Shown piece after piece: positions 3,310 through 33,389 of a stretch of DNA of 64,000 nt. The translations under genes and the position numbers were made by a program. The notes under the pieces were generated by a model. The model was not told the origin of the DNA, did not search any database, and was given only the letters and a program-made list of their open reading frames with translations. The stretch covers positions 515,493 to 579,492 of the forward strand of contig NZ_PZOX01000005.1 in the NCBI RefSeq assembly GCF_003044305.1, read 5' to 3'. How positions within the stretch are numbered: position 1 is the stretch's first letter; every line of letters starts with the position of its first letter. Source of the stretch: Vitiosangium sp. GDMCC 1.1324. GTDB taxonomy: Bacteria > Myxococcota > Myxococcia > Myxococcales > Myxococcaceae.

Positions 3310-3564
3310 GAATGTGCCGGTGAAAGAGATTCAGGAGCCGTTCACGGGTATCGGTCCGGCTCGCCTCGGTCTTGGTCTGGGTAAGCTTGTAGCGGGGCAC
3401 CAGCAAGCGGCGTACCAGCACGACGAACGGACCGGGCTCGCGGCGCTCGCGGATTCTGTCCCTGAGACGTAGACGGACGGTGCGCTGGAACGCCTCAGCG
3501 CTGGTTCGCAGCACGTGGGCTCCCATGAGGGGCGCCTCTGCGCCGGAAGGTTGCGTAGTGCCGT

Positions 3565-3597
3565 AACGCCGATGCGTGTTGAGGACACGCATCGGCG
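3565..3597. other. Perfect 13-bp inverted repeat (CGCCGATGCGTGT-tgagg-ACACGCATCGGCG) in the intergenic region
   Basis: Read directly from the sequence. It has no flanking T/U tract, so it is a stem-loop or protein-binding palindrome rather than a canonical intrinsic terminator. Confidence 0.6.
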
Positions 3598-3709
3598 CGG
3601 GGCGCCGCCCTTCGCCAGAGCCCTCGCAATCACTGATGCGCCTTGCCGCCGCCCGACGCGGTGAACGGTTACTTTCCCCTTTGGAGGCGGAACGAGGCGT
3701 TGTCTGGTT

Positions 3710-4141
3710 TCACGGTGACTGCCGAGCCCTCTTCCTTTGCGCTCCAATCGCTCCAGACGCGGCGGCACGCAGGATGCGGCGGAAGGTGGGGCATTCCATG
3801 TGACTCGGCGCGGGGCAGGCAGCGGCGTGCCGTAGGCCGTCGCGCATGGCGCTGAGTTCGCGGATCGTCCTGTCCAGCTCCTCCGCCTTGGCCGCGAGCA
3901 TCTGTCGGTCGATGCGCGGCCGCCCGTCCGGCGCGAACATCAGCGCGATCTCATCGAGCGAGAAGCCGGCTGCGCGCCCCAGCGCGATCATCGCCAGCCG
4001 TTCCAGCACGCCAGGATCGAACAGACGGCGCAGGCCTCGCCTGCCGGTAGAGGCGATCAGCCCCTTTTCCTCATAGAACCGCAGCGTCGAGGCAGGAACG
4101 CCGGATCGCTGCGCCACCTCAGTGATGTCCAGGTCTCTCAC
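3710..4141 (-). CDS. MerR-family transcriptional regulator
   Basis: N-terminal HTH MRDLDITEVAQRSGVPASTLRFYEEKGLI is typical of MerR, and a C-terminal Cys/His region could bind an effector. Confidence 0.85.
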   Translation of the reverse strand: MRDLDITEVAQRSGVPASTLRFYEEKGLIASTGRRGLRRLFDPGVLERLAMIALGRAAGFSLDEIALMFAPDGRPRIDRQMLAAKAEELDRTIRELSAMRDGLRHAAACPAPSHMECPTFRRILRAAASGAIGAQRKRARQSP

Positions 4142-4144
4142 CCT

Positions 4145-4170
4145 CTTGACCTCAAGTCGACTTGAACTGG
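4145..4170 (+). promoter_or_regulatory. MerR-type operator/promoter candidate: TTGACC -35 followed by perfect 14-bp palindrome TCAAGTCGACTTGA within the spacer
   Basis: The palindrome at 4151-4164 sits immediately after the -35-like hexamer, between the divergent MerR and methyltransferase genes. This matches the classic MerR dyad-in-long-spacer architecture. Confidence 0.45.
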
Positions 4171-10525: not shown

Positions 10526-10542
10526 TATTGCTGTGGGAGCAA
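10526..10542 (+). promoter_or_regulatory. Inverted repeat ATTGCT-gtggg-AGCAAT overlapping the LysR start codon (LTTR-box-like)
   Basis: A perfect 6-bp inverted repeat with a 5-bp spacer, read from the sequence. It lies in the DoxX/LysR divergent region. Confidence 0.3.
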
Positions 10543-11456
10543 TGGACCTGAACCGCGTCGCCACCTTCCTCCGCGTCGTCGAGGCCGGCTCCTTCACTGC
10601 CGCCGCGACGCGCCTCCAACTGCCCACGTCGTCCGTCAGCCGCAGCGTCGCGAAGCTGGAGGAGGACCTCGGCATCGTGCTGCTGGAGCGCACGACGCGG
10701 AAGATTTCCCTCACCGACGCCGGCCGCGCCTACTACGAGCGAGCCCGCGAGGCCGTCGCCGGGCTCGACGAGGCGACGCTGCTGGCGGGGGATGCCGCGC
10801 GCGAGCCGAGCGGTGTGGTGCGCCTCGCCGCGCCGCCCGAGCTGTCAGGGAAGCTCGCGCACACCCTGGGCGCGTTCGTCCGCCAGCACCCGAAGATTCA
10901 TGTCGACGTCATCCACACGGCGCGCGGCACGGAGCTCGTCGGAGGCCAGGTGGACATCGCCATCGTGGCCGGGCAACTCCAGGACTCGGACCTCATCGTG
11001 CGCAAGCTCGGGGTGAGCGTGCACCGGATGTACGCCTCCGCGACGTACCTCGAGCGACGCGGGATGCCCCGCACGGTGGCCGACCTGGCCCGCCACGAGG
11101 CGGTGCTGTACCGGGGCAACTCCGGGCAGGCGACATGGGAGCTCATCGGCCCGCGTGGCTCGGAGAGCGTCAAGGTCCAGGGCGCGCTGAGCGCGGACAG
11201 CGTGCAGTTCGTCTTCGAGGCGGTGATGGGAGGCCACGGTATCGGCCTGCTGCCCGAGCAGCTCCTCTCGTGCATCTCCGCGTCGAGCACGCTCCTCCAG
11301 CCTGTCCTGCCGAAGTACGTCTCCACCGGCACGCTGCAGTCGCTCGTGCACGCCTCCCGGCACCTGCCCAAGCGCGTGACGCTGCTGCGCGACTTCCTCT
11401 CCCAGCACCTCGTGTCCTGCGAGCGGGCCTTCGAGCGGCCCAGCCGGCCCGCGTGA
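10542..11456 (+). CDS. LysR-family transcriptional regulator
   Basis: N-terminal HTH MDLNRVATFLRVVEAGSFTAAATRLQLPTSSVSRSVAKLEEDLG with an LTTR substrate-binding domain. An alternative GTG start at 10533 is possible. Confidence 0.85.
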   Translation: MDLNRVATFLRVVEAGSFTAAATRLQLPTSSVSRSVAKLEEDLGIVLLERTTRKISLTDAGRAYYERAREAVAGLDEATLLAGDAAREPSGVVRLAAPPELSGKLAHTLGAFVRQHPKIHVDVIHTARGTELVGGQVDIAIVAGQLQDSDLIVRKLGVSVHRMYASATYLERRGMPRTVADLARHEAVLYRGNSGQATWELIGPRGSESVKVQGALSADSVQFVFEAVMGGHGIGLLPEQLLSCISASSTLLQPVLPKYVSTGTLQSLVHASRHLPKRVTLLRDFLSQHLVSCERAFERPSRPA

Positions 11457-11557: not shown

Positions 11558-12232
11558 TCAGAAAGACTCGAGGAACGGTAGGTCCAGCCGTCCAGGCCCA
11601 GTCTCGTTCTCTCTCGAATCCGGCGTTTCGAATCCTGTAACACCTGCTCCAGGTCCGGGCCTCGGGCAGTTCACCGGCTGATAGGCCCCTCCATTCCCTG
11701 TGTACGCGTAGGTGTCCATGGTCCCGTGCCCATCGACGAAGCCAAAGAACCCGCTGCCGGACTTGGCGATCGCCAGGTACGTGCCGGGAGGCACGAACAG
11801 CGCGTCGTACCAGCCGAACCCATGCTTCCTGCAGACATGAGTGAAGGGAACCTGCGCCGGGAAGGAGGCTTGCACCGAGGCCACGTCCTCTTGCGTGATG
11901 CTGGCGAGCTGGTCGGGAGTGCACTTGCCACGATTCTGGCAGAGCGCCGAGTCCGGTCCGATGCGGATGACGATGAAGCCCGTGCCCACGCAGGAGATGC
12001 CGAGCCGTAAGCGGCCCACATCAGGCATGGAGATGACGCGCGTGTCGGGGTTGGTGCGGTGGTAGTCCGAGGCCAGGTACACCGGCGTGCCCGGCACGGT
12101 CGTTTCTCCCTGGCAGGGCCCGGGATAATCCCTGCTGCTGGCTGCCTGGGACGCGCTGCCTCCCAAGAGGGCGAGGACGCTCAGCCCTACCCGCGTGAGC
12201 TCCCTCCGCTTGGATGTCATGTTGGCTTTCAT
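11558..12232 (-). CDS. Secreted hypothetical protein (signal peptide, Cys-rich)
   Basis: MKANMTSKRRELTRVGLSVLALLGGSASQA is a signal peptide. Its N-terminal 75 aa, promoter and stop-region motif are duplicated at 16289-16828. Confidence 0.7.
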   Translation of the reverse strand: MKANMTSKRRELTRVGLSVLALLGGSASQAASSRDYPGPCQGETTVPGTPVYLASDYHRTNPDTRVISMPDVGRLRLGISCVGTGFIVIRIGPDSALCQNRGKCTPDQLASITQEDVASVQASFPAQVPFTHVCRKHGFGWYDALFVPPGTYLAIAKSGSGFFGFVDGHGTMDTYAYTGNGGAYQPVNCPRPGPGAGVTGFETPDSRENETGPGRLDLPFLESF

Positions 12233-12381
12233 TGGATCGACGCTCTCCTTTCGGCAGCGGGTGCTGCACTACCGTGGGTACGAGAGCGAGCAAGAATTGG
12301 ATGAAGGCCTTCTCACGGGCCGCGGAAGCAGCACGAAGAGCAGAGGAGGAAGCTCGGCTGCCATGTTGCGTGGAGGTCCGC
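12005..12381. repeat. Direct repeat copy 1 (about 377 bp; 5' end plus upstream region of secreted-protein gene)
   Basis: About 95% identical to 16451-16828 by manual alignment, with one 1-bp indel. Confidence 0.8.
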
Positions 12382-12410
12382 GTCCCACGGCACCGCCCCT
12401 TGTTCGGCGT

Positions 12411-12494
12411 ATCGGCGGCTGTCGCCGACAAATCGGCGGCTGTCGCCGACAAATCGGCGGCTGTCGCCGACAAATCGGCGACTGTCGCCGACAA
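12411..12494. repeat. Tandem array of four 21-bp units (ATCGGCGGCTGTCGCCGACAA)
   Basis: Four head-to-tail copies, the 4th with one G>A change. The array contains alternating half-sites TCGGCG / CGCCGA forming overlapping palindromes at about 10.5-bp spacing, in a divergent promoter region. Confidence 0.85.
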
Positions 12495-12753
12495 ATTGTG
12501 GCGGGTCACCGGATTGGGGCTGGCGCCGGTTCATTGGACAGCTCGAGCAAGCTGCTGGCTGTGCCCGTCGAGGCGGCGAGCTCGAATCCCGCCGAGCTGA
12601 GAGAGCCCGGCTTCGGCTCTGCCCCCAGTCAGCCCGGCGCGAGTCCACTGGCGCGCCCCGTGCAATGACTGGATTTCGCGCCGGCTGGCGCAGGGAGCAG
12701 TCCCCCCGGCAGTCACGCCCTCCACGTCGGCACCCTCTACACGGGAGAAATCA

Positions 12754-14415
12754 ATGTCGCGAGAACACAATCGTCCAGGAGTCCCGAGGTCTTCGAGGTT
12801 CGTGCGCTGGTCGTCGGCGCTGTGTGTCTTCCTTGGCGCATGCACCACTCAGGACGGTCTACCTGAAGCGAATCTCCAATCCTCGACCCAGGAGATCATC
12901 AACGGCACTCCGTACGAGGCGGAGAACAGCGGCTTCGTCATGATGGTCAGCAATGGCTCGCTCTGCAGCGCCACGTTGCTCAACAACGAGTGGGTGCTCA
13001 CCGCGAAGCATTGCAACGTCGTCGCGGGAGCGACGGCGTATATGGGCTCGCAGTCCCGCGGGGTGATTCAGGTGGTCAACCACCCGAACCTGGATGTCAC
13101 CCTGGCGCACCTGCAGAGCCCGATGAGCATGCGGAACTCGAGCAACGCATACGCCAGGGCGCTGCGCACCACGCCGCTCGCGGTGGGGGAAGCGGTGCAG
13201 TGCTTTGGCTACGGCCTCAACACCTTCGACGCGGGTGCTGGCACGCTGCGCACGGCGGCCCTGAGCCTCAGCAGCCTGACGGCGACCGAATACAACTTCG
13301 ACCGGAACGGCTCGGGCCAGGTGCAGTGGAAGGGGGACTCTGGCGGCCCCTGCATCGACAGCGAGGGCAGGGTCGTCAGCGTCGCGTCCTACTGCTGGTA
13401 CGGGAACAACGAGGTGTATTCCTGTGCCGTGGTGCGCTCCGATGTGTTCGCGAGCTGGGCGAATGACTACACCAACCTCCGGACCGGTGCCAGCTATCGC
13501 ATCCAGGTGAAGGCGGATGGCCGCTTCCTCCACGAGGATGGATGGGGTGACAAGTTGCTCAGCACGCGCTACCAGCCCAACGACGACTACACCCAGTTCA
13601 TCCTGGAGCCCAATGGCGAAGGCTGGCGGATCAAGGTGAAGGCGGATGGCCGCTTCCTCCACGAGGATGGATGGGGTGACAGGTTGGTCAGCACGCGCGT
13701 CCAACCCAACGATGATTTCACCGTGTTCATGTTCACTCCGTCCGGAGATGGGAGCTGGCGCATCTCTGTCAAGGCAGACGGCCTCTTCCTCCACGAGGAT
13801 GGATGGGGTGACAAGTTGCTCAGCACGCGCTACCAGCCCAACGATGACTTCACCCGGTTCTATCTGACGCGGGTCGACATCCCGGTGAACTTCGAGTTCG
13901 GGGATGCGCGCCGTACCACCTCCACCGGCGACTGGGCCGCCTTCAGCTACAAGTCCGAGTGCGCCAGCGGTGAGATGGTGGCCGGCCTGTCCCTCAACCC
14001 CACCTCGCGCAATACCCGCGTCGCGCTGTGCCGCGCCAGCGGTGACTCCCGCTTCCCGCACAACGGCTGCTACACCCGGCACTTCTCCTCCGGCGACAGC
14101 CGCGGAACCCTCGCCACCGGCGACTGGGATAACGGGTACTACAAGGGGGAGTGCGGCACGAACGAGTTCGTCGCCGGTGTAGCCCAGGACGCCGCCCATG
14201 GAATCACCGCCATGCTCTGCTGCCCCGGCACGGTGGCCCACAACTCCTGCGTCGCCCGCGTCTTCGACGGCCAGAATGGAGGCTGGAACCCCGCCTCGGG
14301 CGACTGGGACCCCGGGAATTGGAAGGGCGAGTGCGGTCCCGGCAGCTACACCGCGGGCCTCTCCCGCAACACCTCCACCGGCACGCCCCACGCGCTGCTC
14401 TGCTGCAATCCTTAA
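12754..14415 (+). CDS. Secreted trypsin-like (S1) serine protease lipoprotein with beta-trefoil (ricin-B-like) triple repeat and a novel C-terminal 3x Cys-rich repeat domain
   Basis: Lipobox FLGAC; catalytic His in TAKHC and Ser in GDSGGP. Three approx. 45-aa repeats (ADGRFLHEDGWGDKLLSTRYQPNDD...W) follow, then three repeats of GDW..G.ECG....AG.......LCC. Confidence 0.85.
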   Translation: MSREHNRPGVPRSSRFVRWSSALCVFLGACTTQDGLPEANLQSSTQEIINGTPYEAENSGFVMMVSNGSLCSATLLNNEWVLTAKHCNVVAGATAYMGSQSRGVIQVVNHPNLDVTLAHLQSPMSMRNSSNAYARALRTTPLAVGEAVQCFGYGLNTFDAGAGTLRTAALSLSSLTATEYNFDRNGSGQVQWKGDSGGPCIDSEGRVVSVASYCWYGNNEVYSCAVVRSDVFASWANDYTNLRTGASYRIQVKADGRFLHEDGWGDKLLSTRYQPNDDYTQFILEPNGEGWRIKVKADGRFLHEDGWGDRLVSTRVQPNDDFTVFMFTPSGDGSWRISVKADGLFLHEDGWGDKLLSTRYQPNDDFTRFYLTRVDIPVNFEFGDARRTTSTGDWAAFSYKSECASGEMVAGLSLNPTSRNTRVALCRASGDSRFPHNGCYTRHFSSGDSRGTLATGDWDNGYYKGECGTNEFVAGVAQDAAHGITAMLCCPGTVAHNSCVARVFDGQNGGWNPASGDWDPGNWKGECGPGSYTAGLSRNTSTGTPHALLCCNP

Positions 14416-14493
14416 CAACACATCCGTATCGAGGAACCCAATCCCCATTCCGGCTCAGATGAGCCCGGCACATCGAAACTCACGAGGAGACCC

Positions 14494-16317
14494 ATGAACG
14501 TTTCCCCCTTCTGTTCGATTCGAGCATCCCTCGCGGCGGCCTTGCTGCTCCTGTCCGCCTGTCAGCCCCCCGAGTCCCCCGAGCCCGGCGTCGAGTCCGC
14601 GCTGCCTGGGACGGGCGGGGCCAGCGGCACGAGCGAGGAGGTGCGCACCGTGGTCCAGGCCGTCGACATCCCCTCCAACTACGACTCCGGCATCTGGGCC
14701 ATTCCCAGCGAGGGAAACCTCTACGCGGACCGGCTGTATGGCGTGAGCGCCCAGTCCTGCGCCGATCTGTGCAGCGCGAGGCAGGACTGCACCGGCTTCT
14801 ACGCCTTCACCGATTGGGATACCTGCCAGCTCTATGGCGCGCAGGCCGAGACCGCCGGCCGTATCGGGCCCTGGAACAACATCAAGATGTACTGGAAGCG
14901 CAAGAGCGTGAATGCGCAGCAGTACGCCTCGGGCATCTGGGCCGTCCCCAACGAGGGGTACATCTCGGACACGCTGTATGGGTACACGCCCGCCCAGTGC
15001 TCGCAGCTCTGCGAGTCCAAGGCCGATTGCACCGGTTTCTACGCGTTCACCGACAGGCTGCAGTGCCGCCTCCACGGCCCGGCCTCCGAGAAGTCCGCCA
15101 CCAACGGCCCGTGGACGAACCTCATGGAGTACCAGCGCAAGCGCGCGACCCGGGCATTCCTCGTGGATTTGAAGGTCCTCACCACCTCCAGCGGCGGGAA
15201 CGAGTTCTGGAGCGAGGCGCATGCCCGCAACGTGCTCGCCGAGGCGACGAAGCTGATGCAGGGCGAGGTGGCCTTCAGCCTGGCGACCTACACGCGCGTC
15301 GTCGATGACGCGCGTTACAACGGCAACTCGCAGTACGACATCCTCCTGGCCTATGGGAACACGACGCAGAGCGGCCGGATGACCGTCTACGTCTCCAGCC
15401 CAAATACCTACGACTCCGCCGGTGTGGCCTGGCAGGGCGCGCAGTTCGCGCCGTACTTCGTGATGCGCTCGCGGCAGAACAATGGCAGCGCGAGCGACCT
15501 CGACGAGACGGCCCGCATCTTCCTGCATGAGTTCGGGCACAACCTGAACTTCTCGCACGGGGCCGCCACCGAGCAGGACCCCTTCCACACGGACTGGTAC
15601 TGGAACGTCGCCCAGGCCCGGCAGGTCGTCACCCGGCTCGCGGACTGGTCCCGGCTCTACCTCATGGGGACCAGCCCGAACATCAAGACCGACAGCCTCG
15701 ACTGTGGTTGGGGCTGGGGTGTCCCCACCCAAGGAGCCCTGACGGAGCCGCAGTTCTACGCGCCCACGGCGCTGGCGTGTGCCGCGCGATGCGCCCAGAC
15801 CTCGGAATGCGCGAGCTCCCACTGGCGTGATGATGGGGCATGCGTCCTCTATGGCGCAGACAGCATCGGCCATACCGGCATGGGCTGGTCCAACGTGGAG
15901 GTGTGCTGGAAGAAGTCCGATGGGACGGACCTGGCGCTCGCGCGCCCCACGCTCCAGTCCAGCACCGATTGGGGCGGCGCCGCGTCGCGCGCCGTGGACG
16001 GCAACATGGATGGCAACTTCAACGCGGGCTCCGTCACCCACACCGCCACCGAGTCCCAGCCCTGGTGGCAGGTCGACCTCCAGAGCTCCCGGTTCATCAA
16101 CAAGGTCGTGGTCCGCAACCGCACCGACTGCTGCTCCGACCGGCTGAACAACTTCAAGGTCCTGGTCTCGGAGGATGGGAGCACCTGGCAGGCGTACAGC
16201 TTCCCGAACGTGGCGCCGCAGCAGACCGAGTTCCCGGTGGGGAGGACCGGCCGCTTCGTGAAGGTGCAGCTCGACGGCTCGGGCGTCCTCAGCCTGGCCG
16301 AAGTGAAGGTGCTCTAG
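14494..16317 (+). CDS. Secreted zinc metalloprotease lipoprotein with PAN/apple-like domains and C-terminal F5/8 type C (discoidin) domain
   Basis: Lipobox LLSAC, a repeated Cys pattern C..C..DCTGFYAF.....C (PAN-like, about 3 copies), HEFGHNLNFSH (HExxH), and a C-terminal discoidin-like segment WWQVDL...RFVKV. Confidence 0.85.
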   Translation: MNVSPFCSIRASLAAALLLLSACQPPESPEPGVESALPGTGGASGTSEEVRTVVQAVDIPSNYDSGIWAIPSEGNLYADRLYGVSAQSCADLCSARQDCTGFYAFTDWDTCQLYGAQAETAGRIGPWNNIKMYWKRKSVNAQQYASGIWAVPNEGYISDTLYGYTPAQCSQLCESKADCTGFYAFTDRLQCRLHGPASEKSATNGPWTNLMEYQRKRATRAFLVDLKVLTTSSGGNEFWSEAHARNVLAEATKLMQGEVAFSLATYTRVVDDARYNGNSQYDILLAYGNTTQSGRMTVYVSSPNTYDSAGVAWQGAQFAPYFVMRSRQNNGSASDLDETARIFLHEFGHNLNFSHGAATEQDPFHTDWYWNVAQARQVVTRLADWSRLYLMGTSPNIKTDSLDCGWGWGVPTQGALTEPQFYAPTALACAARCAQTSECASSHWRDDGACVLYGADSIGHTGMGWSNVEVCWKKSDGTDLALARPTLQSSTDWGGAASRAVDGNMDGNFNAGSVTHTATESQPWWQVDLQSSRFINKVVVRNRTDCCSDRLNNFKVLVSEDGSTWQAYSFPNVAPQQTEFPVGRTGRFVKVQLDGSGVLSLAEVKVL

Positions 16318-16678
16318 GCGGGCCCCGCGGCTCCAGAGCCCGGGCGGCGCGGTGGGGGCCGCCCGGGAGCTCGAAGCGCGCGTCCACCTTCTCCACCTCG
16401 TGGTTGTCTCCGGGTTGGACGGATTGCGACGGTAGGTCCAACCGTCCAGGCCGTAAGCGGCCGACATCAGGCATGGAGATGACGCGCGTGTCGGGGTTGG
16501 TGCGGTGGTAGTCCGAGGCCAGGTACACCGGCGTGCCCGGCACGGTCGTTTCTCCCTGGCAGGGCCCGGGATAATCCCTGCTGCTGGCTGCCTGGGACGC
16601 GCTGCCTCCCAAGAGGGCGAGGACGCTCAGCGCTACCCGCGTGAGCTCCCTCCGCCTGGATGTCATGTTGGCTTTCAT
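16289..16678 (-). pseudogene. Truncated paralog of the 11558-12232 secreted-protein gene (internal-deletion derivative)
   Basis: The first 75 aa are almost identical to gene 11558-12232 (one K>R change). It then joins to a 23-bp motif matching the stop region of the full-length gene (CGGTAGGTCCA(A/G)CCGTCCAGGCC) and reads through antisense to the 3' end of the metalloprotease gene. Confidence 0.5.
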
Positions 16679-16828
16679 TGGATCGACGCTCTCCTTTTGG
16701 CAGCGGGTGCTGCACTACCGCGGGTACGAGAGCGAGCAGGAATTGGATGAAGGGCTTCTCAAGGACCGTGGAAGCAGCACGGAGAGCAGAGGAGGAAGCT
16801 CGACTTGCCATGTTGCGTGGAGGTCCGC
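16451..16828. repeat. Direct repeat copy 2 (about 378 bp)
   Basis: Matches 12005-12381. It lacks the 21-bp tandem array found beyond copy 1. Confidence 0.8.
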
Positions 16829-17055
16829 ACGAGCAGCAAGACTCCGAGTGAGAGCCCGCGGCAACCGCGTCCAGACCCGCATCAGTCCGGGGACACTATT
16901 ATTTCTGGAATGAACTCGATTCCTGATTGATTCGGAAAAGCTGGTTTTCGTTTGACGGAGCGTGAAAACATTGGGAATCCTCTTCTCGGCCACTGCTCCG
17001 TGGTCTGTGCGCCACCGTGGTGCGCTCACCCCCCAAAGAAACCGAGGACAATCCC

Positions 17056-18948: not shown

Positions 18949-20703
18949 CTACGCGGCCGGGTCCTTCTTCGGCGCCGTGGGCACCTGCAGGCCCGCCGAG
19001 CGCGCCAGGCCCATCACGCCCTCCACCGCCGCCGCGATGTAGCCGAACGGATTGGCTCCATCCACGGCCGTCACGTGCACCTCGCCCATCTTCTGCTGGA
19101 ACGCCGCCGCCACCTGCGGCAACTGCTGCGCCAGCACCAGTTGGATCGACTCCGGCGACAGCGTGTTGTCGATCTCCCGCAGCGCCCTCGCCCTCGCCAG
19201 CTCCGGGTCCTGCGTGATGCGGGCCTTGCGCGCATCCATCTCCGCCATCGCCAGTTCCGCCTCGGCAATGGCACACCGCGCCTCCGCCACCTTCGCCTGC
19301 GCCCTCGCCCGCTCCGCCTCCTGCTGCAACACCGCCATCATCGCCGCGTGCCGCGCCGTCTGCGCCTGCTGCTCCTGGTGCAGCTTCTCCAGATCCGCCT
19401 CCGCCTTCACCACCGCCATCTGCCGCTCATGCGCCAGGCGCGCCGCCTCCGCCTCCTGCTCCAGCTTCAGCCTCTCCAGCTCCGCCTGCGCCTTCGCCAC
19501 CGACAGCGCCCGCTCATTCGTCAGCTTCGCCGTCTGCGCATGCTGCTCCAGCTTCAGCCTCTCCAGCTCCGCCTGGGACCTCGACGCCGCCAGCCCCCGC
19601 TCCTGCGCCAGCTTCGCCTCCGCCATCCGCCGCTCGGCCTCGAGCTGCGCCAGCTTCTGCGCCTCCTCCGCCTTCGTCTTCTGCTCCCTCACCTCCAGCT
19701 CGGCGTTCAGCTTCGCCAGCGCCGTCTCGCGCTCCAGCGTCACCTGCGCCTGCCGCGTGCTCCGCTCCTTCGCGACCCGCGCCTCCTCCACGCGCGACTC
19801 GATCGCCAGCGCCTCCAGCTTCGCCTGCTCCTCCGCCTCCTGCCGCTTGTGCCGGACCTCCTCCTCCGTCGCCAGCCGCGTCAGCGAAATCTGCCGCTCC
19901 GCCTCCGCCTCCTCCTTCCGGATGAAGCGCTCCTTGGCCAGCTCCGCCTCGCGCGCCACCCGCTCCTGCTCCTCCCGGAAGCGCGCCTGCATGTTCGCGA
20001 ACACCGTCTCCGACAGCACCCGCACGTCCTGGATCTCAATCGTGTCCAGGACCACGCCCCACCCCGTGGCCGCCCGGTCCTCCGGCCTCCCCTTCCCCGA
20101 CACCACCGGCGCGATCTCCCGCATCAGCTCCGTGGCGATTCCCTCCTTGCGCTTGGAGAGGCACTCCTCCACCGACAGGTTCGCCACCAGCCGCCGCACC
20201 GCTCCCACGAACATCTCCCGCAGCAGCTCCGCCAGCTTCTGCTGCGCCCGCTCCGGGAAGGAGAAGTTCAGCATCCGGAAGGCCACCAGCGGATCGACAA
20301 TCCGGTACACCGCCAGGCCCGTCACCTGCACGCCCACCTTCTCGCTCGTCACCTGGTCCGCGGTGAACTGCAGCCGCTGCACGCTCGTGGGGACGATCGC
20401 CACCGCGTCCCCCGGCAGCTTGAAGCACGAGGCCCCCTGCCCGCTCACCTCGCGCACCCGGCCCCGGCGCATGTGGATGAGGAACTCGCTCGGCCTCGCG
20501 GTGACCAGGCCCCACTTCTTCATCTTCTCCGGGTCCTCCTCCGGCTTGCCCGCCCTCCACCCGCCCTGGTACCGCCGCAGGTCCTCCCCGCCCCCCTGCG
20601 GCTCGCCCCCGCCACTGCGCACCAGCTCCGACCGCCCTCCCACCGACAGCTCCATGGCCCCCACGGCGTTCAGCTTCATTGCCCGCTTCTCATTCGTGCT
20701 CAT
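18949..20703 (-). CDS. Flotillin-like SPFH/Band-7 domain protein
   Basis: An SPFH domain followed by a long EA-rich coiled coil. The start is taken at MSTNEKRAMKLNAV, since the upstream extension of the listed ORF is not protein-like. Confidence 0.85.
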   Translation of the reverse strand: MSTNEKRAMKLNAVGAMELSVGGRSELVRSGGGEPQGGGEDLRRYQGGWRAGKPEEDPEKMKKWGLVTARPSEFLIHMRRGRVREVSGQGASCFKLPGDAVAIVPTSVQRLQFTADQVTSEKVGVQVTGLAVYRIVDPLVAFRMLNFSFPERAQQKLAELLREMFVGAVRRLVANLSVEECLSKRKEGIATELMREIAPVVSGKGRPEDRAATGWGVVLDTIEIQDVRVLSETVFANMQARFREEQERVAREAELAKERFIRKEEAEAERQISLTRLATEEEVRHKRQEAEEQAKLEALAIESRVEEARVAKERSTRQAQVTLERETALAKLNAELEVREQKTKAEEAQKLAQLEAERRMAEAKLAQERGLAASRSQAELERLKLEQHAQTAKLTNERALSVAKAQAELERLKLEQEAEAARLAHERQMAVVKAEADLEKLHQEQQAQTARHAAMMAVLQQEAERARAQAKVAEARCAIAEAELAMAEMDARKARITQDPELARARALREIDNTLSPESIQLVLAQQLPQVAAAFQQKMGEVHVTAVDGANPFGYIAAAVEGVMGLARSAGLQVPTAPKKDPAA

Positions 20704-20938
20704 TGGCGCACCCTCCGGAAGTCCCGGACTCCCGGAATTGCAGCCTGCTGGCCAACGCCCCGCTGCCCTGAAATCGCGCACTTGGCCACTCGGGGTGTTC
20801 CAGGCTGGCGCACCTGCTCCAGAGTGGAGCGCTCCGCTCCGGTACAACCCGTGATAGAGGACTGAATCGGTCTGATTCGCGGTTGATACAGCCTGGGGCG
20901 CCCCGCCCTTATGTCAGCTTGACCGGGAGGGTCCCGAT

Positions 20939-27610: not shown

Positions 27611-29212
27611 GTCGCCTCCGCCCACCTCGTCTCCGGGATGATCAACGGCTTCGCCCCGTCGCGGTACACCTCGGACAGCCGCTCGTGCAGTTGCGTGCAG
27701 TGGCTCAGCGCCGACAGGTCCACCGGAAGCTCTCTCGGCCAGCAGATGAGGCTGGAGGTCTCCGTGCGCGTGAGCCCACCGTGCGAGCCGAACTCCCACG
27801 CGAAGCCCACCGTGCCACCCCGAGGCACCGCCTGGCCAAAGAGCACCAGGTCTCCCGCCGTGGACATGTAGGGCAGCTCGCGCAGGAAGTCCGCCACCGC
27901 CCGGCGCGAGAACTCCGCATCCAGTGGCGCGCTGTCGATTTCGCCCGGCCCGTACACTCCTCCGTTGATGACGGCCACCGCCGAGTCACCCCGGCGCACC
28001 GCCACGATGGCGATGTCCGGATGGCGCGCGGCCCTCGCGATCACCTCCGGGTGGCGCGCCACCAGCTGCGCCGCCTCGAGCGGCTTCTGCTCCCGCGTCA
28101 GGTAGACGTGGGAGAAGTTGCCGGACTCGACGACCACCGGCTCCTCCGGAGCCCCTGCCAGTCCGACCACCGGATGCGGGCGGCCATCGAGCAGCCCCCG
28201 TGCCACGTCCTCGGAGAGCGGCAGGGGCTCGCCTCGCAGGAGGATGTCCTCGAGCCGCTGGCCCCCGCGCTGCTCGATGGGGTGGCTGTCCACGTGACCG
28301 TGGTCCGTGAGGAAGATGAGATCGTACCCGGGCTCCACCACCTGGGCCACCGCGTAGAGCTCCGCGAGGTAGGCGTCCACACGCTGCAACTCCGCGAGCG
28401 CCTGCGCCGAGTGCGGGCCGCGGCGGTGGGCCACCTCGTCATAGTTGCCGTAGACGAGGTAGACGATGGGCACGCCGCGAACCATGTCCAGCAGGCTCTT
28501 GGAGTGGACGAAGCTCCACCCGAGCCGCTGCAACACCACCCGGCTCATGAGGAAGCCGCTCTCATGGCGCCAGTCCCGGAGCGCGCGGGCCCAGCCGTAC
28601 ACCTCGGTGAAGGCCTTCCACGCGTCGCGGCCGAGCGAGCGCAGATAGGAGAGCGGCGTCTGCGTGCGCGCCGCGAGAATGCCCGCCATCTCGTACTTGA
28701 AGTTCTTCGCCATCAATCTGTAGCTGCCCAGCGTGCTCATGCACATGCGATTGCTGGCGTCCGCCTTGAAGAGCGAGAAGTACGTGTGCCCGCCACTCGA
28801 CAGAAGGCTCCCGCCGGGGCAGCTCCGCAGCCGGGCCTCGACCGCGAGCGTGTCGCTCGGCATGTTCATCTGGACCTTGCGGCCGAGCTCCCGGTCGAAC
28901 CAGCTGTAGGCCGGCAGGTTGGGATGGCGCAGGCCATAGAGAAAACCCGCCTGGAAGAAGGGCGTGGAGGCAGGCGAGCCCCAGAACGCATCATCCATGG
29001 AGTAGGCGCCGGAGCGCATGAGCTTCGAGAAGAAGGGCATCCGCCCGGTGCGAACGGCATCCTCGAGATGTGACTTGGGGACCCCGTCCAGGTGGACGAC
29101 GAGCAGCTTGCGTCGACGAGAAGTCGACAGCGGGGCGACCTTCGCCCCCACGCGCCGCACGTACTCTCGAGCCCAGGCCTGCAACTGTGGGTTGATGACT
29201 TCGTTCACGGTC
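27607..29212 (-). CDS. Alkaline-phosphatase-superfamily phosphoesterase (type I phosphodiesterase/nucleotide pyrophosphatase-like)
   Basis: LVVHLDGVP ... LTDHGHV metal-ligand motifs. The start is a GTG near 29212, and the upstream part of the listed ORF is Arg-rich. Confidence 0.7.
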
Positions 29213-32030: not shown

Positions 32031-33389
32031 CTACTCCGCCTCTCCCTCGTGCACCAGGCCGTACTTCTTCAGCTTGTCGTGCAGGGTGGCTCGGCCGATG
32101 TCCAGCAGCCGCGCCGCCTCGCTGCGGTTGCCGTGCGCCTCCTCCAGCGCGGCGACGACGAGCGCCCGCTCGTAGGCCTCCACCTTCTCCTTGAGGCCCG
32201 CTCGCGGCGCTCCCTCGCGGCGCTCCTGCTCCGGCCCTCCTGGCAGCAGCGACAGGTCCAATGTCCCGTCCGGGCTCATGGCCACCGCGCTCTCCAGGGC
32301 GTTCTCCAGCTCACGCACGTTGCCCGGCCACCTCCACGCCGTCAGCCGCGCCATCAACTCCGGCGTCACCTGCACCGCCGGCACGTGGAAGCGCTCGGCG
32401 AAGCGCGTGAGGAAGTGCTTCGCCAGCGCGGCGAGATCCTCCGGCCGCTCCCTCAGGGGCGGCACGTGCAGGTTCACCACCTTCAGCCGGTAGAAGAGAT
32501 CCTCTCGGAAGCGCCCTTCCTTCACCCGCTGCGCGAGGTCCCGGTGCGTGGCCGCCAGGATGCGCACGTCCACCGGCCAGGCCCGATCCTCCCCCACCGG
32601 CCGCACCTCGCCCTCCTGCAGCACGCGCAGCAGCTTCGCCTGGGTGGCCGGCTCCAGCTCGCCCACCTCGTCCAGCAGCAGCGTGCCGCCGTCCGCCTCG
32701 CGGAACAGGCCCTGCCGCGCACGCACCGCCCCGGTGAAGGCTCCCCGGGCGTGGCCGAACAACTCCGCATCCGCGAGCTCGGGGGTGAGGGCGGCGCAGT
32801 TGAAGCGCACGAAGGGCCGGTCCGCCCGGGGAGAGGCGCGCACCAGCGCCTCGGCGATGCGCTCCTTGCCCGTGCCGCTCTCGCCGGTGATGAGCACCGT
32901 CACGTCGCGCGGCCCCACCCGCTTCACCAGCAGCGCCAGCCGGCTCATCGCCTCCGAGACGAAGACGAGCGAGCGCAGCAGGTTCACCTCCCCCGCCAAC
33001 TGCTCGTTCTTCGCCTCCAGCGCGAGGGTGCCCAGCACCCGGCGCACCACCACCAGCACGTCGTCCACCTCGAAGGGCTTGCGGAAGTAGTCCAGCGCGC
33101 CGAGCTTCATCGCCTCCACCGCGTGCCTCTCGCTGCCGTGCGCGGTGATGAGGATGACGCGCGGAACGGGCGAGAGCGCACGCCCCCGGCGCAGCAGTTC
33201 TATTCCGTCCACCTTCGGCATCCGCAGGTCGCTGATGACCAGGTCCACCGGGGGCTCCGCGGCCAGCCGCCGCAGCGCGGCCTCTCCGTCCCCCACCTCC
33301 TCCACCTCGAGCCCGTCGTCCTCGAGCAGCCCACGCAGCGTGTAGCGCACGCCCGCGTCGTCGTCCGCCACCAGCACTCGCGCCTTCAT
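32031..33389 (-). CDS. Sigma54-dependent response regulator (NtrC family: REC-AAA+-Fis HTH)
   Basis: The DDD...K REC domain, Walker A GESGTGKE, the GAFTGA motif, and a C-terminal HTH. Confidence 0.9.
   Translation of the reverse strand: MKARVLVADDDAGVRYTLRGLLEDDGLEVEEVGDGEAALRRLAAEPPVDLVISDLRMPKVDGIELLRRGRALSPVPRVILITAHGSERHAVEAMKLGALDYFRKPFEVDDVLVVVRRVLGTLALEAKNEQLAGEVNLLRSLVFVSEAMSRLALLVKRVGPRDVTVLITGESGTGKERIAEALVRASPRADRPFVRFNCAALTPELADAELFGHARGAFTGAVRARQGLFREADGGTLLLDEVGELEPATQAKLLRVLQEGEVRPVGEDRAWPVDVRILAATHRDLAQRVKEGRFREDLFYRLKVVNLHVPPLRERPEDLAALAKHFLTRFAERFHVPAVQVTPELMARLTAWRWPGNVRELENALESAVAMSPDGTLDLSLLPGGPEQERREGAPRAGLKEKVEAYERALVVAALEEAHGNRSEAARLLDIGRATLHDKLKKYGLVHEGEAE

Follow-up and report, generated by a model that had tools for sequence, protein, structure and literature searches.

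The window analyzed here, a stretch of 64,000 nucleotides from Vitiosangium sp. GDMCC 1.1324, contains an array of four 21-bp units between two divergent genes, and the question raised by this locus is what the array does and which of its neighbors it serves. An earlier note had described it as a set of phased palindromes bound cooperatively by a transcription factor and controlling secreted hydrolases of the kind used in predation. The features of the locus are as follows.

11558–12232 (−): divergent gene for a 224-aa secreted protein, with a signal-peptide-like N-terminus and no Pfam family
12404–12409 (unstranded): extra (ninth) TCGGCG half-site immediately left of the array, read from the sequence
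12411–12494 (unstranded): four tandem 21-bp units ATCGGCGGCTGTCGCCGACAA, together the proposed upstream activating sequence (enhancer)
12420–12430 (unstranded): dyad 1, TGTCGCCGACA, the conserved 11-bp core, common to loci L007, L010, L011, L012, and L133 (listed below)
12441–12451 (unstranded): dyad 2, TGTCGCCGACA
12462–12472 (unstranded): dyad 3, TGTCGCCGACA
12483–12493 (unstranded): dyad 4, TGTCGCCGACA, preceded by the variant TCGGCGAC, the same as in the second A. violaceum unit
12495–12509 (+): flank ATTGTGGCGGGTCAC, directly 3′ of the array; also found after the two-unit array of A. violaceum (L010)
12630–12702 (+): conserved promoter block CAGCCCGGCGCGAGTCCAC ... GCTGGCGCAGGGAGCAG, near-identical in L010 and L011
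12649–12664 (+): sigma-54-type −24/−12 element TGGCGCGCCCCGTGCA, with GG-N10-GC, matching the consensus at 10 of 12 positions and located 90 bp ahead of the S1 ATG
12754–14415 (+): S1 (trypsin-like) peptidase gene, Trypsin plus ricin-type repeats, lipobox-like N-terminus; proposed first gene of an operon
14494–16317 (+): PAN/metalloprotease-like/discoidin (F5/8 type C) gene, 78 bp after the S1 gene; proposed second gene of the operon

Tandem Repeats Finder resolved the array into 4.1 copies of a period of 21 with the consensus ATCGGCGGCTGTCGCCGACAA, 98% matches, and no indels, extending it slightly to 12411–12496. In context, it reads ...TTGTTCGGCGT(ATCGGCGGCTGTCGCCGACAA)×3(ATCGGCGACTGTCGCCGACAA)ATTGTGGCGGGTCAC..., where units 1–3 are identical to one another and unit 4 (12474–12494) differs from them by one G>A change. 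No match to the unit was found elsewhere in the 64-kb window with up to three mismatches allowed, and none of 100 shuffles reached four unit matches. The palindrome TCGGCG-N5-CGCCGA occurs exactly four times in the window, always inside the array, and the junction palindrome CGCCGA-N4-TCGGCG occurs three times, in the array only. Because the exact matches to both patterns are confined to the array, the eight alternating half-sites, set in steps of 11 and 10 bp, are real, and the repeat finding and the exact counts bear out the phased arrangement of eight half-sites over four units that the earlier note had described. Over the 521 bp between the two genes (12233–12753), GC content is flat across the three codon positions (0.64–0.69), compared with GC3 values of 0.80–0.92 in the flanking genes; since it has no codon-position bias, this segment is intergenic and the array is non-coding. 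A coding repeat of 7-aa units was ruled out for the same lack of bias, and the overlapping ORFs contain no Pfam family. When folded as DNA, the array region forms two long hairpins (−39 kcal/mol, z = −7.3). Judged from these properties and from the comparisons below, the array is almost certainly cis-regulatory.

The window was scanned for promoters with the pattern TGGCACG-N4-TTGCW, in which GG and GC were required. Nine such sigma-54-type sites were found against 5.7 expected by chance, so that the element at 12649–12664, with 10 of 12 positions, is weak on its own. The same sequence, TGGCGCGCCCCGTGCA, is present without change in L010 and in the Archangium lansingense locus L011, and the variants TGGCACG-N4-GTGCT and TGGTACGCATGTTGCT occur across L007, L012, L133, and L008. 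In four of the five S1 loci, an element of this type lies 50–91 bp from the S1 start codon, namely, in the window, in L011, in the JGI contig L012 (TGGCACGACGCGTGCT), and in the Logan contig L008 (TGGTACGCATGTTGCT, positions 391–406, called strong). In the Cystobacter fuscus locus L007, a GON-domain gene precedes the S1 gene at a distance of 31 bp, and it is in front of this GON gene that the element (TGGCACGAGGCGTGCT) is found. A consensus scan of 11900–13000 detected no sigma-70-like promoter, which is weak evidence in a genome of 68% GC. Two further sigma-54-type elements were observed in other settings. One in the window (TGGCACGGGGGCTGCT, 28190–28205, minus strand, 11 of 12 positions) is unconnected to the dyad motif. 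The other, in L011, follows a gene for an XylR_N/V4R-type enhancer-binding protein (EBP; 15280–16911) and faces a tyrosinase gene (TGGCACGAGCCCTGCT, 17022–17037); it belongs to a separate unit, 7 kb from the S1 gene.

Every 21-bp unit contains the 11-bp dyad TGTCGSCGACA, and this dyad recurs in related loci, distributed as follows.

Window: four exact dyads, all within the array
L007 (C. fuscus): two exact dyads, abutting, upstream of GON-S1
L010 (A. violaceum): one exact dyad and a one-mismatch copy 21 bp away, upstream of the PAN/discoidin ortholog
L011 (A. lansingense): two exact dyads, 21 bp apart, upstream of S1
L012 (JGI contig): one exact dyad and an abutting degenerate copy, upstream of S1
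L133 (A. lansingense), GON module: one exact dyad and an abutting one-mismatch copy, upstream of GON
L133 (A. lansingense), Vps62 module: one exact dyad, upstream of a Vps62-domain gene
L008 (Logan contig): no exact dyad in the approximately 455 bp covered upstream of a more distant S1 ortholog
L009 (Stigmatella locus): no exact dyad; unrelated context

In 168,123 bp of myxobacterial DNA, the exact dyad occurs 12 times, against 0.13 expected from shuffles and 0.17 from a first-order Markov model, and all 12 copies fall within seven intergenic modules. Downstream of each of the seven, at 65–230 bp and on the same strand as the neighboring gene, lies a sigma-54-type element (GG-N10-GC, with 10 or more of 12 positions matched); these modules share ancestry and fall into two sequence classes, and therefore are not independent observations. 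Conversely, 7 of the 21 sigma-54-type elements in the 168 kb have a dyad upstream, where approximately 0.2 would be expected. Within these 168 kb, the motif is conserved and exclusively associated with sigma-54-type elements, and the genes that the modules face encode secreted proteins, with S1 peptidase, PAN/discoidin, GON, or Vps62 domains.

The class I modules (window, L010, and L011) have a 21-bp period and the promoter TGGCGCGCCCCGTGCA, and the class II modules (L007, 8445–8546; L133, 14777–14875 and 9844–9935, both on the minus strand; and L012, 118–219) have abutting 11-mers and a TGGCACG-N4-(G/A)TGCT promoter at a spacing of about 73 bp. Two additional blocks are conserved in class II: GCGACGTTTCGCGA, immediately 5′ of the dyads, and the palindrome GGGGGTTCTCCTC-N-GAAGAGCCCCC (G5...C5), in the interval from dyads to promoter; they could be the site of a second factor or a bending site. 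When five modules were aligned, the dyad block alone was conserved in all five, and the promoter blocks were conserved within each class; on this alignment, a dyad block kept amid otherwise diverged sequence is a phylogenetic footprint. The A. lansingense array can be aligned with that of the window in inverted orientation, and its near-palindromic unit also aligns in register without inversion. The module of L012 consists of a class II enhancer and promoter joined to a class I S1 leader, a mixed structure from which it follows that modules have been recombined.

Taken together, these observations suggest, with a probability of about 0.65, that the array is the upstream activating sequence of the sigma-54 promoter at 12649–12664, driving the S1 gene and probably also the PAN/discoidin gene. 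The earlier proposal of a cooperative transcription-factor array controlling secreted hydrolases is supported by the recurrence of the dyad, in four further genomes or contigs, ahead of secreted-protein genes that are orthologous or similar in function; a role of these hydrolases in predation is conjecture. Since the partner promoter is of the sigma-54 type, the binder is most likely an NtrC-family EBP, which comes close to the multimerizing response regulator named in the earlier note, and the Fur-like and iteron-like systems also named there found no support. Similarly, of the divergent pair that the array was thought to control, the S1 side is the one to which it is tied, and no evidence was obtained for the 224-aa gene, which on the sequence comparisons appears to be only a neighbor.

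Under the enhancer reading, in which we infer binding, looping, and activation from the sequence, dimers of an NtrC-family AAA+ EBP would bind the dyads through the core TGTCGSCGACA, a sequence that can equally be parsed into TCGGCG/CGCCGA half-sites at intervals of 10–11 bp. Because the 21-bp period corresponds to two helical turns, all bound dimers would share one face of the DNA, where the active ring could assemble. The 155–240 bp between the array and the promoter would loop out, and ATP hydrolysis by the ring would open the closed complex of the sigma-54 holoenzyme at 12649–12664, allowing transcription of S1 and, probably, of the PAN/discoidin gene that follows it. The binding register could be that of the 11-bp dyad, of the 17-bp TCGGCG-N5-CGCCGA, or of the 16-bp junction palindrome; in the 11-bp dyad, the half-site centers are separated by only 6 bp, an unusual spacing for a dimer of helix-turn-helix proteins.

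A candidate for the activator is encoded beside several of the modules. In C. fuscus (L007), two genes beyond S1 lies the gene for a protein of 542 aa that combines Sigma54_activat, AAA lid, and HTH_8 domains; this protein has neither a receiver nor an FHA domain in Pfam and matched no named NCBIfam equivalog. An ortholog with 90% identity is encoded in L133 between the two modules, of which the Vps62 module lies less than 100 bp from the EBP gene and is divergent from it, and the GON module lies 3 kb away and adjoins a Ser/Thr kinase gene, as in C. fuscus. This kinase (1191–1193 aa, with TPR repeats) is encoded directly upstream of the GON module in both loci (L007, 4856–8431; L133, 14892–18473) and may be the signaling input. 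In L008, a truncated gene directly upstream of the S1 gene has an end homologous to the C-terminus of the candidate EBP. The Vitiosangium ortholog, P0104, is also 90% identical and is encoded on a different contig from the array, a separation that counts against the enhancer reading. The HTH_8 region and a second helix-turn-helix-like segment at the C-terminus are near-invariant among the orthologs. Judged by gene neighborhood only, P0104 would most likely be the binder of the array dyads. An NtrC-type response-regulator EBP encoded in the window (32031–33389, minus strand) was rejected as the regulator; its similarity (45–49%) is of the generic AAA+ kind only, and it is no ortholog of the EBP linked to the modules.

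The dyads might instead be operators of a repressor or co-regulator outside the EBP family that co-occurs with sigma-54 promoters, with the EBP binding elsewhere, an explanation that we regard as unlikely. The class II blocks, GCGACGTTTCGCGA and the G5...C5 palindrome, could be the real EBP site, but the dyad block is the sole upstream element common to both module classes and lies at the usual distance of an enhancer. The 6-bp spacing of half-sites in the 11-mer is atypical for dimers with a Fis-type helix-turn-helix. The locus L008 speaks for such an operator and against the enhancer reading, in that it has the EBP fragment and a sigma-54-type element without the dyad motif. The TCGGCG-N5-CGCCGA site in this locus lies inside coding sequence and was taken as a chance occurrence. 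A different tandem repeat was observed there (GGACGTAGATC, 11 bp, about 3.5 copies, positions 139–185), approximately 210–250 bp upstream of the sigma-54-type element and directly past the stop codon of the EBP-like gene fragment; it may be a diverged enhancer. A LysR-family gene 1 kb from the array (10533–11456) would offer another binder, but it is convergent with the 224-aa gene instead of divergent from its target, and the dyad contains no T-N11-A box; with the wrong gene orientation and no LysR-type box, it was rejected as the regulator.

The enhancer reading also has to accommodate the number of units, which in relatives is one or two. The A. violaceum module reads GGC-TGTCGCCGACA-AG-TCGGCGAC-TGTCGCCGGCA-T-ATTGTG..GGCGGGTCAC, and its two units agree with window units 3 and 4 in order and orientation; the right flank is shared as well. 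Window units 1–3 are of the GGC variant, as is the first A. violaceum unit, and unit 4 is of the GAC variant, as is the second, which suggests that unit 4 is the older one. Since units 1–3 are identical and relatives have one or two units, the four units represent a recent enlargement of a site that formerly had two. From these comparisons, the simplest history would be a two-unit enhancer whose first unit was recently triplicated in the Vitiosangium lineage by slippage or unequal exchange, processes that the strong hairpin potential of the array would favor. In the enhancer reading, the triplicated unit would add binding sites and should raise occupancy or cooperativity. The same facts can be read in favor of a minisatellite, that is, a neutral product of slippage of which at most the ancestral one or two units matter: the complete identity of units 1–3 suggests recent expansion, the relatives have fewer units, and a palindromic unit that folds so strongly (z = −7.3) would favor slippage. 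We consider this improbable as an account of the array, because the core is conserved in four other genomes or contigs at a fixed class of position relative to the sigma-54 element, so that the duplicated sequence is itself functional, and because a cooperative binder would scarcely fail to respond to additional sites in phase. For the two added units, neutral expansion is plausible; for the core, it is not.

The surroundings of the array show signs of rearrangement. A direct repeat of 378 bp (98% identical; 12004–12381 and 16450–16828) brackets the segment containing the array, the S1 gene, and the PAN gene. Its second copy contains a truncated 224-aa gene (the first ~76 codons and ~150 bp upstream) and no array; the absence of the array from this copy had been stated correctly before, and the direct repeat ends approximately 23–30 bp left of the array. 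The repeat has the look of a scar left when an insertion or duplication put the 4-kb cassette here. The S1 peptidase of the window is identical to PTL82691.1 of Vitiosangium sp. GDMCC 1.1324, and the neighborhoods of its orthologs (proteins of 83–93% identity) are unrelated in every genome examined; the Stigmatella homolog of the 224-aa gene likewise lies in an unrelated context and is uninformative for synteny. In A. violaceum, the PAN/discoidin ortholog lies directly behind the matching array-plus-promoter module, and the 78 bp before the PAN/discoidin gene of the window (14416–14493) match the promoter-proximal leader of this ortholog (L010, 9935–10000). Relative to A. violaceum, the S1 gene may have been inserted between the promoter and the PAN gene, or it may have been lost in A. 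violaceum. Two other tandem repeats were observed in the window, both within reading frames: a 132-bp repeat (13498–13860, 2.8 copies, 82%) in the S1 gene, which represents repeated ricin-type lectin modules, and an 87-bp repeat (19313–19655, ~3 copies, 78–81%) in a long high-GC3 ORF on the minus strand (18949–20913).

It is very improbable that the array marks one end of a mobile or recombined segment, with transposase or recombinase sites such as those of Tn7-type ends at the edge of the 4-kb cassette. The array is the outermost conserved element of 12382–16449, which the direct repeats bracket; the S1 and PAN genes occur in different contexts in every genome examined; and in low-GC metagenome contigs, a dispersed element has inverted-repeat ends composed of back-to-back TGTCGSCGACA 11-mers. 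However, no inverted partner array exists anywhere in the window, no transposase or integrase is found among the characterized genes adjoining the array, no phage or plasmid similarity was detected, and in every locus the position of the array is fixed relative to the promoter and not to a segment end.

It is scarcely credible that the array acts through DNA or RNA structure (as a cruciform, terminator, attenuator, or small RNA) or in replication as an iteron, because, although its predicted hairpins are strong and its four copies at a 21-bp period resemble plasmid iterons, the best Rfam scores were 17–22 bits against gathering scores of 47–100, no T-run follows the hairpins, the array is upstream of the predicted promoter and hence outside the S1 transcript, the neighbors are protease and secreted-protein genes with no rep gene among them, and no match was found in 72,556 plasmids.

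Wider scans placed the motif in other settings. The pattern TCGGCG-N5-CGCCGA-N4-TCGGCG-N5-CGCCGA had six matches in species-representative genomes, none of them myxobacterial; two are likely chance occurrences in GC-rich sequence and four are unrelated 21-bp duplications. As to a dispersed repeat of the REP or MITE type, which would be expected in many copies across a genome, the 64-kb window contains the unit at the array site only. Tandem 21-bp units with TCGGCG-N5-CGCCGA were seen in two Gemmatales MAGs (L004, 492–550; L005, 1152–1189), a Streptosporangiaceae MAG (L003, 2369–2406), and a Halobacteriales MAG (L002, 3717–3754); in these unrelated phyla, there are two or three units (e.g., TTCGGCGCTGAGCGCCGAAAG ×3), with the half-site and period of the array and different spacers. 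Among the matches listed, the metagenome scan for dyad pairs was dominated by a low-GC mobile-element family, and none of the high-GC matches listed has a sigma-54 element within 400 bp, so that these added no further modules. About 95% of the metagenome matches listed (L013–L132, GC 0.38–0.51) consist of two to four back-to-back TGTCGSCGACA 11-mers. In the matches listed, these stand in the fixed contexts tgtcggccaagatttggcgacatttggcga(11-mers)tgtggagctaag and its reverse complement, often at contig ends and sometimes as inverted pairs ~0.2–0.8 kb apart (e.g., L059, 1991–2012 and 2836–2857; L131, 3352–3384 and 3596–3628). This arrangement suggests a mobile element present in many copies in a low-GC organism, with the 11-mers in its terminal inverted repeats; no transposase was identified for it among the matches listed. 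A 619-kb metagenome contig with a GC content of 0.61 (L078) contains, at ~3560–4090, about 25 degenerate 21-bp repeats of GAACTG-N-CGCCGACAGCGATC, several with the exact TGTCGCCGACA core and with no sigma-54-like element nearby; this array may lie inside an ORF (3359–4147).

As a putative enhancer, the array can be compared with known upstream activating sequences of NtrC-family activators at sigma-54 promoters, such as the NtrC sites at glnAp2 and the three NorR sites at norV; these activators need several dimers to build the active AAA+ ring. Like these sequences, the array presents multiple dyads on one helical face ~70–250 bp upstream of a GG-N10-GC promoter, and it keeps a conserved position but varies in copy number and distance. 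In contrast, its sequence is unrelated to the sites of NtrC (TGCACC-N5-GGTGCA), NifA (TGT-N10-ACA), and NorR (GT-N7-AC), and it consists of exact tandem copies produced by repeat expansion instead of diverged sites. The array shares with plasmid iterons and Tn7-type ends about four direct repeats of roughly 21–22 bp in helical phase; unlike them, it has no replication initiator, transposase, or partner end nearby, and every locus shows it linked to a promoter. In Myxococcus xanthus, the EBP Nla28 binds tandem imperfect repeats of a short half-site, CT(C/G)CG(C/G)AG, often three to five per promoter and with variable spacers, upstream of TGGCACG-N4-TTGC(T/A), and many of its promoters are intragenic (PMC9765219). 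The array resembles this arrangement in placing tandem short half-sites upstream of a sigma-54-type promoter and differs from it in the core TGTCG(C/G)CGACA and the strict phase of 10–11 or 21 bp; compared with Nla28, the candidate EBP has no receiver domain and no named NCBIfam equivalog. A literature search with the motif strings returned only unrelated primers and constructs, and the motif, the small secreted-hydrolase regulon, and the candidate activator were not found in the literature searched.

A broader picture can be sketched tentatively, although we think it doubtful in its full form. The array and promoter might be a portable cassette that has been recombined before secreted-hydrolase genes (S1, PAN/discoidin, GON, and Vps62) in the Archangiaceae, with breakpoints between enhancer, promoter, and 5′ leader, and the number of sites (1, 2, or 4), changed by slippage, might serve as an evolutionary gain control. 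The binder would then be an uncharacterized EBP whose two C-terminal helix-turn-helix motifs contact consecutive 10.5-bp boxes, possibly under the control of a Ser/Thr kinase.

To our knowledge, myxobacteria have dozens of sigma-54 activators, most of them without a known DNA site or target genes. The locus described here most likely represents a familiar kind of bacterial switch, in which, by the literature searched, the motif, the candidate regulon, and the candidate activator are the new part. For one EBP, it brings together three concrete, testable elements: a site, which is TGTCGSCGACA set in phased arrays; a type of promoter; and a candidate activator, near whose gene a Ser/Thr kinase is encoded. 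It also defines a small candidate regulon of secreted hydrolases. Furthermore, the natural series of one, two, and four sites before homologous promoters would allow a direct test of how the number of sites relates to sigma-54 output.
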